From a virus (Duplodnaviria; Caudoviricetes), in IMG/VR virus record IMGVR_UViG_3300017910_000414, positions 1 to 52,921 of that record: a stretch of 52,921 nucleotides of DNA; one strand, written 5' to 3'. Each line of letters opens with the position of its first letter. Positions within the stretch are counted from its first letter, which is position 1. The position numbers were made by a program, and so were the translations under genes. Positions 2,901 to 35,157 of the stretch are shown piece by piece. A model generated the notes under the pieces. That model did not search any database, was not told the DNA's origin, and saw only the letters and a program-made list of their open reading frames with translations.

Positions 2901-4028
2901 ATGATGTCAGATATCAATAAAATTATGGAGGCATATTTGGGAATGGTCTCCGCGCCTCAGGTAGAGGATACTCTAGAGGAAAAGAAAATAGGTAACATGG
3001 GGCCATATGGTATGGCGACCATTACTAAGGCACTTGCTGCAAACGGAATCAAAGGCGCTAAGGCAATCGGCGTAAAAGATTTTCTAAGAAAGAGCGGTAC
3101 TGTCAATGAAGAAGTCGAAGAAGAACTAGACGAAGCATGTGGCAAAAAGCACTATAAAGAAGGTCGAGTAGAGTGCACTAAGTGTGAAGGTAAAGGCTGT
3201 GATCACTGTGATAACAAAGGTTACCACGAAGTATCAGAGAAAAAACTTGATCCAGTAGACGATGCAGAGAACGACAAGAAGTTCAAGGATCGTAAGGACA
3301 AGGACATCGACAACGATGGCGATGTAGATTCTTCTGACGAATATCTACACAAGCGTCGTAAAGCAACTGACGATGCGATCGATGGTGGTAAGAAACCTGC
3401 AAAAGAATCTGCACAAGTAGATGAGGTTTCTGCAGAGCTTGCAAAGGCTGCATTCAAGGCACGTGCAAAGCGTATCGATGATCTAGAGAAAGAGAAAGAG
3501 AAAGAGACCAACAAACACGGTCGCGCTCAGATCGATAAAGAGATCGATAGTCAAGACAAGAAGTTGGCACGTTCTCACGCCAAGTCTGGTTCAGACAAAC
3601 CACTTAACAAGTCATACAACGATGCTGTTAAGGACAAGGATACTCGCTCAGATTCTCAAAAGTATGCTGATTATAAGAAAGATGGTGGTAAGTTATCTAT
3701 GGATGATTGGAAGAAGCGTCAACACGAAGCGCTTGAATTAGACTTGTCTCAGTCGTTTGCTGAAATGTGGAAACAAATGCAAGAAGCAATTGACCCTAAG
3801 AAGGGTGCAACTGCTTCAGAGAAACATGATGATCACTCATCTGATCACGACAAGAAAGTTATTGCACAACACAAGAAGTCTGATAAGAAAGTCGAAGACC
3901 AAGAAGAAAAGAGTCACGACACAGTCTTCAAGGCAGCGGGTAAGGATATGAAGCAAGCTCCTGCTCGTAGTGGTGCAGACAATTTGTCAAACGGCGATAA
4001 GACTATCGTAAACCCTGTAAAGAAGTAA
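2901..4028 (+). CDS. charged modular protein, putative prohead core/internal protein
   Basis: 375 aa; GGAG SD; many LxE/VxE motifs; CxxC-G-CxxC and DIDNDGDVDSSDE motifs. Confidence 0.6.
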   Translation: MMSDINKIMEAYLGMVSAPQVEDTLEEKKIGNMGPYGMATITKALAANGIKGAKAIGVKDFLRKSGTVNEEVEEELDEACGKKHYKEGRVECTKCEGKGCDHCDNKGYHEVSEKKLDPVDDAENDKKFKDRKDKDIDNDGDVDSSDEYLHKRRKATDDAIDGGKKPAKESAQVDEVSAELAKAAFKARAKRIDDLEKEKEKETNKHGRAQIDKEIDSQDKKLARSHAKSGSDKPLNKSYNDAVKDKDTRSDSQKYADYKKDGGKLSMDDWKKRQHEALELDLSQSFAEMWKQMQEAIDPKKGATASEKHDDHSSDHDKKVIAQHKKSDKKVEDQEEKSHDTVFKAAGKDMKQAPARSGADNLSNGDKTIVNPVKK

Positions 4029-4232: not shown

Positions 4233-5161
4233 TTAAATATTATATTCTGACGAGCGGACCACTGTCTGCTCTTAAACGTCACTTTCAATTTTTAAAATCA
4301 ACTGAGACCGTAGTCGTCATCAATTCTCTTAATAAAGAGTATGTTGATGAGGCCGCGGTTTTTTGTGCGTCTAGAGAAATTGAATACCATATTACTAAAT
4401 CGGATGGTACGCCTGCAACGGGTAAGAACTCCGTACTTAAACTTTTTCTAGAGAGCGACAATGAGTATATGGTACACGTTGATGGTGATGATATGATCAC
4501 ACCATATGGCCGTAATCTCTATCGCGCAGCTGCGCATACAAACCCACCAGATGTCATCTGTTTACAAAACGAGTTGGAGATACAGAACTATCGTCCTGAG
4601 CTTCTGAGTGTCTTTCGTGATCAGATCGATTCAAATACAGTAGAACAAAATCTATTGTTTATTCCTAGATCATATATGCCTAGACATCCATATGTCCTAA
4701 TCAAAGGGTCTGTGGGTAACAGGGCAACCATTCAAAGACATCGATCAGATCTGGATGACTCTATCATAGAGTCGTGGTTATCTGACCGCAAATACCTCGT
4801 TGACTTCTACTCAAAATACAGTGACGGACGAAACTCACTGAATCGAATCGTCTTTTTGTCTCGCAAGGCTGCGGAGATGATGTGGTACGATCCAGTATTA
4901 ACTATCGGTGAAGATCTGGTACAACTGTACAAACTAAAGAAATTAGCGTATAATGGCGCTATAGACATGCGTATACGTAATGAGAATCCAAGGTATACGT
5001 ACCTTCACCTTACCGAAACGTCTAGCATCACGCGTGGAGAGGCATTTGATTGGAGTTGGCAGTCAAGTCTTATTGAAGAACTAAATAAACTCGACATGTA
5101 TCCCGAAGGGTTTCATCTACCGGAGTTTGTAGATCCACATTATGAAGTTAAACAAAAATAA
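4229..5161 (+). CDS. GT-A (family 2-like) glycosyltransferase, probable non-canonical ATA start
   Basis: Frame open from 4226 (IIKYYILTSG...GKNSVLKLF...YMVHVDGDD); DxDD motif; first ATG only at 4469. Confidence 0.55.
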   Translation: MIKYYILTSGPLSALKRHFQFLKSTETVVVINSLNKEYVDEAAVFCASREIEYHITKSDGTPATGKNSVLKLFLESDNEYMVHVDGDDMITPYGRNLYRAAAHTNPPDVICLQNELEIQNYRPELLSVFRDQIDSNTVEQNLLFIPRSYMPRHPYVLIKGSVGNRATIQRHRSDLDDSIIESWLSDRKYLVDFYSKYSDGRNSLNRIVFLSRKAAEMMWYDPVLTIGEDLVQLYKLKKLAYNGAIDMRIRNENPRYTYLHLTETSSITRGEAFDWSWQSSLIEELNKLDMYPEGFHLPEFVDPHYEVKQK

Positions 5162-32435: not shown

Positions 32436-32735
32436 ATGTTGAAATTTGAAAACACTGCGAACGTCGGAGACAAGATCCGCGCATATGACTTTGAACCGAT
32501 GCCCGATCGTCCCGATTCCTACCTCGTTGGTGAAGTGCTTGAGAAAGGCCCGATTTACGCGAAGCCCCACTACACCGCTGACCGTGAGGTCTACATGTGT
32601 GACGGGTACACCGTCTTCGTCAAGGACTCTGTGACGGGTTCTGTAGAACATGACATGCAACGTGTGGGTAGCATCATGTATGTGCCGTTTGAGATGGCGA
32701 TGTCCGATTTTGATAACCGTGTGGAGGTGATTTAA
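32436..32735 (+). CDS. early hypothetical protein
   Basis: VGD.IRAYDF.PM..R.D motif; AAGGA SD. Confidence 0.7.
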   Translation: MLKFENTANVGDKIRAYDFEPMPDRPDSYLVGEVLEKGPIYAKPHYTADREVYMCDGYTVFVKDSVTGSVEHDMQRVGSIMYVPFEMAMSDFDNRVEVI

Positions 32736-33205
32736 TGAGTGCTACGTTTGAGCGAATCTGGGAAGAACTGGTTCCTAGAGAAGGTAAGTGCGACACTGTC
32801 GCAGGTGAGATGGTTCGTGCCGCAGGTCGTTTGCGTTACGACTTCTACAACAACGGGATGGGTAATAACACATCCGGTGCCCTGAAGTTCCTACGTGAGA
32901 AGGGTGCGATCGACAAGGAGTTGTTCGAGTACGTCCGACCCTACACGACGGGCCGCACCTACTCCGGTAAATACGAGAACGATCTGTTCCACATCGCAAT
33001 CGACCGCATCGTTGAGATGACCACCAAGATGGTGACTTTCAACCCGCAGTTGATGACGATGGAGAACACCGAAGACATGTTCGACTACTCTGATGAGGAT
33101 CTCGACGAGACATGTCCAGAGTGTTCGGGTTACGGCTATGACGACTACGCGGATGAAGATTGTTACTTCTGTGACGGCACCGGACACGTTGGAGAGTGGG
33201 TATAA
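32735..33205 (+). CDS. hypothetical protein with C-terminal CxxCxGxG zinc finger
   Basis: LVP..GKCDTVAGE.VRA...YD.YNNG; CPECSGYG...CYFCDGTG. Confidence 0.75.
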   Translation: MSATFERIWEELVPREGKCDTVAGEMVRAAGRLRYDFYNNGMGNNTSGALKFLREKGAIDKELFEYVRPYTTGRTYSGKYENDLFHIAIDRIVEMTTKMVTFNPQLMTMENTEDMFDYSDEDLDETCPECSGYGYDDYADEDCYFCDGTGHVGEWV

Positions 33206-33286: not shown

Positions 33287-33346
33287 AGGGGAGTCGGTCT
33301 TGCGAAGATTCCGACTGACAGGTATGTGGATCGCTCCCCTATTTTT
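33287..33346 (+). other. branched stem-loop / terminator-like structure
   Basis: AGGGGAG...CTCCCCT outer stem with inner AGTCGG/CCGACT hairpin, then ATTTTT. Confidence 0.5.
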
Positions 33347-34047: not shown

Positions 34048-34368
34048 ATGCCTAAAATCATTAAGTTAAATTTCACTAAGAAGGTGCGTTACATCTTTGA
34101 CAGAGAGACTGAGGAAAACATTCAGTTGAGCGAGAAGGTGACTGATCACTTTGGATCATTCATCAACAACTCGTGGGAGATGTCGGACGTGAAGCGCTTC
34201 CACAAAGCACTCCGTGAGTGTGGACTATCTGTCGAGGAGTTCCTATCCAAAGAATGGCCTGCCCCTAAAAAGAAGGCCCCGACTAAAAGAAAGACGCCAA
34301 CTAAAAAGAAGGTGGCTGCCAAGAAAGCTCCGGTCAAGAAAAAAACCACTACAAGGAAAAAGAAATAA
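34048..34368 (+). CDS. protein with histone H1-like Lys/Ala/Pro-rich tail
   Basis: PAPKKKAPTKRKTPTKKKVAAKKAPVKKK; AAGGAG SD. Confidence 0.7.
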   Translation: MPKIIKLNFTKKVRYIFDRETEENIQLSEKVTDHFGSFINNSWEMSDVKRFHKALRECGLSVEEFLSKEWPAPKKKAPTKRKTPTKKKVAAKKAPVKKKTTTRKKK

Positions 34369-34961
34369 TGCGGAATGCTGCATACCGAAGAGCAATTGAC
34401 GCGGGTCTGACTACCTCCCAGGCCTATAAGTATTCTGATTACTACCGTCGTAAGACGGTCCTACCAAAACGCGATAGCGAGAAAAGTAAAACCTACACCG
34501 CCGAGTGGAAACTCGAAAACGAACACCCTGACTTGATTGGTCCATTAAAAGAGTTTAAAGACGTTGAGAAGTTTGTGAAACAAGTGACTGCATCCAAGAC
34601 GTGGAGTAAGGTGTCCCGTTATCACGGCAAGGTGCGAGTCGTTCAGTCACGTAACATGGGAAGTCGCGCGGCCTACATGGGCAGGTCACACGGATCATGG
34701 ATCGAGATCTCACCTGCGTTCGGTTTTAACAAATACATCGTCTTGCACGAACTAGCACACAGTGCGGGATTCAGTCACCATCACGTGACCTTTCGACAGA
34801 CACTATTAAAGTTGGTGTCAAGATTCCTTGGTCGAGAGACCGCCGCGATCCTCAAGGCGAACTTCAAGGAGCAGGGGTTGCGAGTGACTCCTGCAAAACC
34901 TAAAGATCCGGTTGCATGGTTGGAGGCTGTTAAACGTGCACCCATTATGCAGAGTGCATAA
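34368..34961 (+). CDS. HExxH zinc metalloprotein (SprT/zincin-like)
   Basis: IVLHELAH......HH..F. Confidence 0.75.
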   Translation: MRNAAYRRAIDAGLTTSQAYKYSDYYRRKTVLPKRDSEKSKTYTAEWKLENEHPDLIGPLKEFKDVEKFVKQVTASKTWSKVSRYHGKVRVVQSRNMGSRAAYMGRSHGSWIEISPAFGFNKYIVLHELAHSAGFSHHHVTFRQTLLKLVSRFLGRETAAILKANFKEQGLRVTPAKPKDPVAWLEAVKRAPIMQSA

Positions 34962-35000
34962 AAAAGTATTTGTATATTCCAAAATAATCTAAAAAAGTAC

Positions 35001-35028
35001 TTGACTTTATTTTTAAAACATGTATAAT
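35001..35028 (+). promoter_or_regulatory. sigma70 promoter
   Basis: TTGACT-16nt-TATAAT with upstream A-tracts. Confidence 0.7.
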
Positions 35029-35043
35029 ATGTATTGAGAGTTG

Positions 35044-35140
35044 GGGAGATCTGGACTCTCGACTAGGAACCTTCGGGGTTCACTGCTTGTCCGCTGGACA
35101 TCTGGAGTCGGAATAGGAACTACTGTTCACTGCTTCTCCC
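35044..35140 (+). ncRNA. candidate structured ncRNA or leader with internal two-fold repeat
   Basis: GGGAGA/TCTCCC closing stem; duplicated ATCTGGA, TAGGAAC-loop-GTTCACTGCTT units; promoter upstream, T-run downstream. Confidence 0.55.
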
Positions 35141-35157
35141 TTTTGTTTGAGGTTGTT

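Follow-up and report, generated by a model that had tools for sequence, protein, structure and literature searches.

A promoter-linked three-way-junction RNA in the early region of marine T4-like phages

The 52,921-nucleotide (nt) IMG/VR virus record IMGVR_UViG_3300017910_000414, analysed over its whole length and referred to in the following as the window, encodes directly behind a sigma70-type early promoter a folded RNA of about 98 nt (35043-35140), here termed the junction RNA. It belongs to a real, conserved family that is absent from Rfam 15 and from the other libraries searched. It is a more elaborate form, occurring once per genome, of the promoter-early stem-loop (PeSL) cassettes known from T4-type phages, and the window holds it as an unusual helix-swapped double. 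An earlier note, made from the sequence alone, had proposed an undescribed, promoter-driven, two-fold symmetric non-coding phage RNA at this site, and this proposal is supported by the present analysis, including the lack of any Rfam match at gathering scores. Phage-only structured RNAs are rare, and few of them have a known function. The junction RNA combines a clear architecture of 55 nt per module with a location at a control point, namely the first nucleotides of an early transcript. Its carriers are abundant marine T4-like phages, with no cultured representative carrying the RNA. As to its function, a folding-dependent, factor-sensing attenuator acting in cis on a PeSL-type G-run/C-run stem-loop is favoured here, tentatively and at well below even confidence.

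Architecture and conservation of the junction RNA

The following elements were assigned in the window.

35001-35028, + strand: sigma70-type early promoter (TTGACT 35001-35006, 16-nt spacer, TATAAT 35023-35028), A-rich upstream
35034-35042, + strand: 5' leader UUGAGAGUU, which can pair with 35054-35062, competing with P1 and shared helix P2
35044-35049, + strand: 5' strand of closing helix P1, GGGAGA, paired with 35135-35140; G35043 could give an extra G-U pair
35050-35054, + strand: joiner 1 of unit 1, UCUGG (AUCUGG with A35049), conserved in doubles and singles
35059-35063, + strand: unit-1 strand of shared helix P2, UCGAC, inside ACUCUCGAC (35055-35063), paired with 35107-35111
35064-35066, + strand: joiner 2 of unit 1, UAG, invariant in the family alignments
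35067-35081, + strand: hairpin P3a, GAACC-UUCGG-GGUUC, covarying
35082-35088, + strand: joiner 3 of unit 1, ACUGCUU (ACUG invariant, then C/U/A, then U, then U/G)
35089-35099, + strand: central hairpin Pm, GUCC-GCU-GGAC, at the position where P1 closes a single module
35100-35105, + strand: joiner 1 of unit 2, AUCUGG, from sequence and alignment
35107-35111, + strand: unit-2 strand of shared helix P2, GUCGG, from pair counts on doubles
35114-35116, + strand: joiner 2 of unit 2, UAG, from sequence and alignment
35117-35128, + strand: hairpin P3b, GAAC-UACU-GUUC, covarying
35129-35134, + strand: joiner 3 of unit 2, ACUGCU (U35135 is already part of P1)
35135-35140, + strand: 3' strand of P1, UCUCCC, paired with 35044-35049
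35141-35148, + strand: U-rich tract UUUUGUUU immediately after P1, a terminator-like end
35149-35160, + strand: ribosome-binding site GAGG (35149-35152), then ATG 35158 of an 81-amino-acid (aa) open reading frame (ORF; 35158-35403)

The promoter agrees with 11 of the 12 consensus positions, a promoter of identical type precedes every family member, and P1 starts fifteen bases 3' of the -10 box. The promoter, the closing stem, the two units (AUCUGGA at 35049 and 35100; UAG-GAAC-loop-GUUC-ACUGCUU at 35064 and 35114), the central hairpin and the U-rich tract had all been pointed out in the earlier note and are present where it placed them.

The basic module of the family is a three-way junction of about 55 nt, composed of P1 (GGGGAG/CUCCCC), near-invariant joiners and two covarying hairpins. 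Single modules (12 distinct sequences, 52-60 nt) consist, from 5' to 3', of P1, (A/U)UCUGG plus one base, a short variable hairpin P2 (mostly GUC...GAC), UAG, hairpin P3, ACUG(C/U)UU and the 3' strand of P1. The form found in the window is a domain-swapped double, in which two junctions share one helix built from one strand of each repeat: the segment 3' of the first UCUGG (35059-63) forms base pairs with the one 3' of the second (35107-11). Within the double, the inner junction is closed by the central hairpin, just as a single module is closed by P1, such that two junctions of identical make-up lie one at each end of the shared helix. Relatives contain one, two or three modules, L038 and L042 carrying a double followed by a single module. 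Upstream of the same gene, a single module is found in L037 and a double in L017 and L019. The end of the P1 5' strand and the first joiner together form a perfect 6-nt palindrome (AGAUCU, 35047-35052), which is also present in most relatives and missing in the GAGUUCUGG variants (L005, L012); RNA dimerisation and a restriction site are possibilities for it.

Selection on RNA structure, as suggested in the earlier note, is corroborated by the pair counts on doubles and singles, according to which the helices covary while the joiners are fixed. In 11 double-unit sequences, 97.5% of the 279 pair cells are standard pairs and 7 of the 26 pairs have changed on both sides. None of 500 shuffled controls reached the observed pairing and covariation values, and only 35-66% of cells were paired in controls with slid partners. 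All cells (130/130) are paired in 11 singles, with both-side changes in 2 of 13 pairs. The A3 alignment was left out of these counts, because MAFFT misplaces the second unit of L006, L010 and L014. Among the individual helices of the doubles, shared helix P2 has GC in eight and AU in three sequences at column pair 19-82, and UG, CG or UA at pair 17-84. In P3a, pair 26-38 is AU in eight and GC in three, and pair 27-37 is AU in eight, GU in two and GC in one. In Pm, every cell is paired and three of the four pairs are altered on both sides (e.g., GCCCC/GGGGC in L076 versus GUCCC/GGGAC in L038). In P3b, pair 93-103 is AU in nine and CG in two, and L134 has GAAU/AUUC. The cells of P1 are all paired in alignments A2 and A4, and rare variants of this helix retain pairing (GGGAGAG/CUCUCCC in L012, GGUGAGA/UCUCGCC in L127). 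The cross-pairing of GACUC (35054) with GAGUC (35105) proposed in the earlier note is possible in the window, but the relatives support another register, UCGAC (35059-35063) with GUCGG (35107-35111), which covaries as CCCGAC/GUCGGG and CUCAAC/GUUGAG.

About 17 unpaired nucleotides per module are near-invariant. The UCUGG joiner is kept in both units of the 11 doubles, except for GCUGG in one unit of L010, and in 10 of the 11 singles (UCAGG in the eleventh). Fixed joiners combined with covarying P2, P3 and Pm are the pattern expected of a binding core, and the near-fixed joiners look like a binding site.

In most members, P1, P3, the central hairpin and the shared helix already emerge from RNAfold alone, the shared helix being predicted unaided in L006, L010, L014, L017, L019 and L102. 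Thermodynamics alone fail to single out the element (z-score of the minimum free energy, MFE, -1.05). For the copy in the window, the MFE structure is an alternative leader hairpin (35034-42 with 35054-62) without P1. One compensatory change was observed in this hairpin, A35037-U35059 in the window being replaced by U-A in L038 and L076. Leader pairing of 7 bp is possible in L008, L020, L034 and L012 and is treated as lineage-specific, since most members reach only 3-5 bp.

Occurrence, transcription and non-coding nature

The source record (52.9 kb, ~32% complete) derives from a T4-like phage, as indicated by a gp32-type single-strand-binding protein, a baseplate wedge protein and NrdA encoded in the window. 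Phage C48C1 (filed under Kyanoviridae) is the only named phage closely related to it; for the gp6-like protein, identity is 95.8% to that of C48C1 and at most 32% to those of the best-ranked cultured phages among the matches listed.

The first pattern scan of IMG/VR yielded 34 loci, 33 of which have the layout promoter, RNA and start codon; L026 looks like a chance match. Six further loci came from a second pattern scan and five further RNA-bearing contigs from a search with the neighbouring protein, resulting in a family of about 44 IMG/VR contigs, plus metagenome contigs, and about 30 distinct variants. A loose pattern retrieved 54 loci from metagenome contigs, 24 of which match covariance model R1 at E<=0.01. 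With R1, one locus each was detected in the window and in four related IMG/VR contigs (70-160 kb, one of them 93% complete), no locus in the complete C48C1 genome, and no match in five further contigs that contain the neighbouring gene, their records being 14-53% complete.

Rfam 15 (4227 models) was searched at gathering scores and at E<=10. At gathering scores, no match was obtained in the whole window or in eight related loci. At E<=10, region 34900-35300 gave five matches, all of them noise far below gathering (best 16.5 bits versus 70) and none to a riboswitch, ribozyme, tRNA, transfer-messenger RNA (tmRNA) or CRISPR (clustered regularly interspaced short palindromic repeats) model. When the RNA by itself was compared by BLAST with 50,697 phage records, nothing was returned at E<=1 and no cultured phage matched. 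In the literature, searched also with the motif's own strings, no description was found, supplementary files not being covered.

In all of 17 representative loci, the variable early region houses the RNA, and the gp32 gene follows a few kb downstream. The genome of C48C1 shows a promoter with a short plain leader directly 5' of the homologue of 35475-36023, and a cassette-sized difference separates its positions 3617-3693 (L001) from positions 34962-35474 of the window: the latter hold promoter, junction RNA, 81-aa ORF and second promoter, the former a single promoter. Since the block of promoter, RNA and 81-aa ORF is absent from C48C1, it represents an insertion or a deletion. Other early promoters in the window have plain short leaders. 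No Pfam or PHROG family was assigned to the product of the 81-aa ORF (35158-35403), which is acidic; its start is kept in several relatives, and the ORF is missing in others.

Seawater data contain the stretch in three metatranscriptome runs and many DNA runs. An RNA contig of 3077 nt (X17 record 6) has its first base at 35038, 10 nt 3' of the -10 box and within a few bases of the expected transcription start, and extends past 36100. In X11, a single contig spans the whole stretch; this variant differs from the window at 30 positions in 1801 nt, with 0 differences in 34955-35246 and 22 in 34344-34954. All of this evidence consists of assembled contigs, from the depth of which 3' ends, amounts and short versus long RNA are not readable; uncovered stretches (34538-35037 in X17, before 35569 in X20) are uninformative. 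The region, assumed in the earlier note to be transcribed, is covered by metatranscriptome contigs, which hint weakly at use of the promoter and at the existence of read-through RNA. Because the RNA contig continues into the downstream genes, the junction RNA is at least partly a 5' leader and not solely the stand-alone small RNA envisaged at first.

The 3' end of the element resembles a terminator. In the window, the layout of an intrinsic terminator is present (6 bp, 4 of them GC, followed by UUUUGUUU). Among 32 distinct element-plus-flank variants (chance match L103 dropped), at least five U within 8 nt were found starting 0-2 nt after P1 in 25 and starting 0-5 nt after P1 in 28. P1 accordingly looks like an intrinsic-terminator stem, the closure of which would depend on correct folding of one to three junctions. 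The distance from the RNA to the start codon is 17-31 nt in 26 of 27 distinct arrangements and 52 nt in L012. Since the RNA is followed by a ribosome-binding site and ATG and no promoter intervenes, expression of the downstream gene requires read-through.

Translation of the stretch as a TTG-started N-terminal extension (35041-35157) of the 81-aa ORF, raised in the earlier note as a threat to its RNA reading, has a practically negligible probability. The frame is indeed open in the window from 35038 to the ATG. Against this, in seven of eight distinct arrangements with the same downstream gene (MSCLQGYID...) the RNA or the spacer contains an in-frame stop, and in 19 of all 27 arrangements the stop is located downstream of the RNA start. 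The MSCLQGYID... start is also used in relatives with an upstream in-frame stop, the element precedes unrelated genes, its length differences are not multiples of three, and substitutions in the helices are compensatory. The survey of in-frame stops across arrangements thus refutes the extension, barring proteomic evidence to the contrary.

Several loci deviate in detail. L142 and L143 possess, behind the same promoter type and at the place where relatives carry the junction RNA, only a bare hairpin (GGGGAGAGUCCCC) with the U tract UUCAUUUU, located ~60 nt upstream of the ATG of the c0 homologue; this plain stem-loop is either a deletion remnant or an ancestral form. In L012 and L018, a second GC-rich structured stretch of ~75 nt (GGGG...CCCC plus U6) is located between junction RNA and ribosome-binding site. 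Within it, at L012 4030-4110, two CCCUGU copies could alternately pair with one ACAGGG; this stretch has no Rfam match and an MFE z-score of -0.53. Two early proteins encoded in the window (34368-34961 and 36387-36872) are small and contain HExxH-like motifs (HELAH and HEMIH, respectively), the former with weak, sub-threshold Pfam matches to Astacin and WLM metallopeptidase domains (E 0.02-0.04).

Possible modes of action

The element makes up the first ~110 nt of an early phage transcript. In the tentatively favoured attenuator, its near-invariant junction nucleotides would provide a pocket or platform to which a factor, either a small ligand or a protein, binds. With the junctions folded, P1 would close right before the U-rich tract and part of transcription would stop; with the junctions unfolded, the polymerase would continue into the gene starting 17-31 nt later. 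In the lineage of the window, the 5' leader may compete with this fold via pairing to 35054-62. The leader hairpin of the window, being ~6 kcal/mol more stable than the fold with P1 forced, is counted in favour of this mechanism. So are the leader of the L003/L009 group, in which GUGAG pairs with CUCAC after P1 and extends the stem to the U-rich stretch, and the module count, which differs between close relatives in front of the same gene, as in tandem aptamers. The plain stem-loop of L142 and L143 is likewise counted in its favour, because PeSL stem-loops with runs of G and C terminated transcription in reporter tests (PMC2839356).

Riboswitch-like is the conserved unpaired core amid covarying helices in a 5' leader. 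Metabolite riboswitches normally guard genes of related function, but the genes downstream of the junction RNA are not functionally coherent, falling into six unrelated clusters across 17 loci, none with a known function. Several further findings weigh against the attenuator. The P1 sequence is nearly fixed, which is odd for the closing helix of an aptamer, and the leader hairpin is strong in some lineages only. P1 encloses ~85 nt, unlike a classical terminator hairpin, and is not listed by a consensus terminator scan, a simple scan of this kind missing it because of the ~85-nt 'loop'. In 4-7 of the 32 variants, the U tract is weak or out of place, and from the assembled contigs neither a stop of transcription at 35141-35148 nor the proportion of short and long RNA can be read. 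Two exact-pattern scans covering 185,579 species (one genome each) produced zero cellular matches, although a diverged cellular relative would be missed, as these scans were pattern-level only.

More doubtful is a wider interpretation as a phage-only class of sensor RNA, in which the three-way junction would be an aptamer, doubled here into a domain-swapped pseudo-dimer with two binding cores, that sets early transcription into the replication block. Its target may be a small molecule or the transcribing polymerase itself. As soon as infection begins, such an RNA would determine what share of early transcription reaches the block leading to the replication genes, and it would represent either a new riboswitch class without cellular counterpart or a second, unrelated put-like polymerase-programming RNA. 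A sensor of a ligand or protein would provide a compact new aptamer and a handle on the timing of early expression. With ~200 nt and a consensus sigma70 promoter, the system is directly testable in vitro and in E. coli without the host.

A trans-acting role as decoy or sponge for a host or phage protein (e.g., a dimeric RNA-binding or defence protein) is possible, yet must be regarded as doubtful. Here, the strong promoter and the P1/U-tract terminator would yield an abundant, short, stable RNA with one to three identical junction sites, and the downstream gene would be expressed by leakage only. The strong promoter of its own and the terminator-like end suit this role, as do the fixed P1 and joiner sequences, which recognition of the sequence by a protein would lead one to expect, the two-fold symmetry of the double, the varying module number among close relatives and the independence from the identity of the downstream gene. 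The element also behaves as an accessory of a hyperplastic early region, with one locus per phage contig, absence from C48C1 and no match in the five other contigs with the neighbouring gene (14-53% complete). Difficulties arise from the ribosome-binding site and start codon 17-31 nt behind the RNA in 26 of 27 arrangements, from the RNA contig that reads through the element, from a U tract that is not tight in all members, and from the lack of a conserved adjacent gene for a partner protein. Nor is the 8-mer with which the unit-1 strand could pair enriched in the window (9 found, 10 expected). If it were a decoy, the RNA would point to a host factor that phages must neutralise.

A plain structural element of the PeSL type appears unlikely; it would end transcription coming from upstream and so keep cassettes apart, or protect the message at its 5' end, and its branched interior would have no binding function. 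The layout of A-rich region, sigma70 promoter, G/C-run stem-loop, ribosome-binding site and ATG is that of a PeSL, the L142/L143 variant is a bare hairpin, the RNA begins 6-8 nt from the predicted 5' end with the leader paired in some members, and a second element of the same phages combines a GGGGAG/CUCCCC stem with a U tract at gene ends. A terminator or stabiliser, however, needs no ~17 near-invariant unpaired nucleotides per module, nor a junction preserved through single, swapped-double and triple forms. In addition, the RNA is unique per contig versus ~50 PeSLs per genome (PMC2839356), and the X11 variant is identical to the window over 34955-35246 as against 22 differences in 34344-34954.

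Quite improbable is a nascent RNA comparable to HK022 put, bound by which the polymerase would resist pauses and terminators, so that transcripts would reach the gp33-like and gp32 genes 3 kb downstream. Antitermination seems unnecessary, because terminator-like sites downstream are few and further promoters are located at 35412 and 36944. A terminator-like end of their own and tandem or swapped copies are not known as features of put RNAs, which also counts against this explanation. The 3077-nt contig starting at 35038 is compatible with it, being aligned to 36100 and, judging by its length, expected to end near the gp32 start at 38061. Position after the promoter, low copy number and gene independence are shared with put RNAs (PMC9378689); size and two stem-loops are similar, but in the junction RNA the form is closed by P1 and often duplicated.

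Only in its general form, a small junction with invariant unpaired nucleotides in a phage, does the element recall a ribozyme that would shorten the early message at its 5' end by self-cleavage; no Rfam ribozyme family was matched up to E<=10, metatranscriptome contigs run across the element without a break and no cleavage site is suggested by any analysis, which makes this very improbable.

Five further candidates were rejected. No tRNA or tmRNA genes were found by ARAGORN in the window, L004, L008, L012, L017 and L078, and none by Rfam; the 5' end may bear some likeness to the beginning of tmRNA. Mimicry of a CRISPR repeat (an RNA anti-CRISPR) disagrees with the lack of any CRISPR direct-repeat model at E<=10 and with the replacement of the repeat-like GUUC stem by GCCC, GUCC, AUUC or GUC in relatives. 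In a type III antitoxin array (ToxI-like), units would be arranged head-to-tail and a single toxin gene family would be required downstream, versus the nested and swapped units within one closing helix and the differing downstream genes observed here. An antisense function towards a shared early-leader signature is not reflected in the window, where the 8-mer complementary to the unit-1 strand occurs 9 times versus 10 expected. Pairing of the P1 3' strand and pyrimidine tract with the ribosome-binding site (anti-Shine-Dalgarno switching) was inconsistent across members as judged by eye.

Relation to known systems

The same early region contains a second, gene-end structured element:

33287-33345, + strand: gene-end structured element, between the stop codon of ORF 32735-33205 and the promoter that follows

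It is composed of a long stem (GGGGAGUCGGUC ... GAUCGCUCCCC) around a conserved loop of ~30 nt (UUGCGAAGAUUCCGACUGACAGGUAUGUG) and is followed by a U tract; no Rfam match was obtained for 33287-33345. The stem covaries (GACGGGGCCUGUGA/UCAC..CCCCGUC in L078; GAUGAGAGUCGUGU/ACACGACCUCAUC in L136), and the loop motif was found in 18 of 167 fetched loci. In L136, the gene-end element is separated by a tRNA-Pro (UGG) gene (4611-4687) from the promoter that precedes the junction RNA, and in this contig the junction RNA lies downstream of the c0 homologue and before a different gene (MSDQTIR...). With the junction RNA, the gene-end element of the window shares the GGGGAG...CUCCCC outer stem, the U tract and the early region; it differs by its long covarying stem with apical loop, by its location after stop codons and before promoters, and by an R1 score of only 9.3 bits.

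Tandem riboswitch aptamers (glycine; the glutamine glnA RNA of marine bacteria and phages) resemble the junction RNA in being small junctions with fixed unpaired nucleotides and covarying helices, in their location in 5' leaders, in their single or tandem occurrence and in their presence in marine phages; glutamine riboswitches are reported behind early promoters of marine myophages in the Melnitz paper (PMC9004378). In contrast to these, the junction RNA has no Rfam riboswitch match at E<=10, unrelated downstream genes and no cellular copies found, and its modules are fused via a swapped helix instead of standing side by side.

The put RNAs (PMC9378689) are ~70 nt long with two stem-loops, are located just after early promoters, occur once or twice per genome and act gene-independently. 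HK022 putL/putR and the junction RNA are both promoter-proximal and restricted to a phage lineage, and they are similar in form as folded nascent RNAs of ~55-70 nt with two hairpins. In the junction RNA, unlike in putL/putR, a third helix with a U tract behind it encloses the two hairpins, and copies are duplicated and swapped.

Closest in layout are the PeSL cassettes of T4-type phages, which consist of strong sigma70 promoters and G-run/C-run stem-loops and mediate the shuffling of ORFans (Arbiol et al. 2010, PMC2839356). As reported in that study, PeSL stem-loops are simple hairpins that serve as terminators or attenuators and are repeated ~50 times per genome, and stem-loops with G and C runs, some of them downstream of the -10 box, terminated transcription in reporter tests. 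The junction RNA agrees with PeSLs in its sigma70-like early promoter with A-rich upstream sequence, its G/C-run stem-loop, the ORFan behind it and its hyperplastic early region, as well as in the shuffling of cassettes before different ORFans, the block of promoter, RNA and ORF missing in C48C1 included. It differs from PeSLs in that it is not repeated, occurring at one locus per contig (four related contigs and the window), and in that its 'loop' holds between one and three conserved three-way junctions, whose joiners are invariant and whose arms covary.

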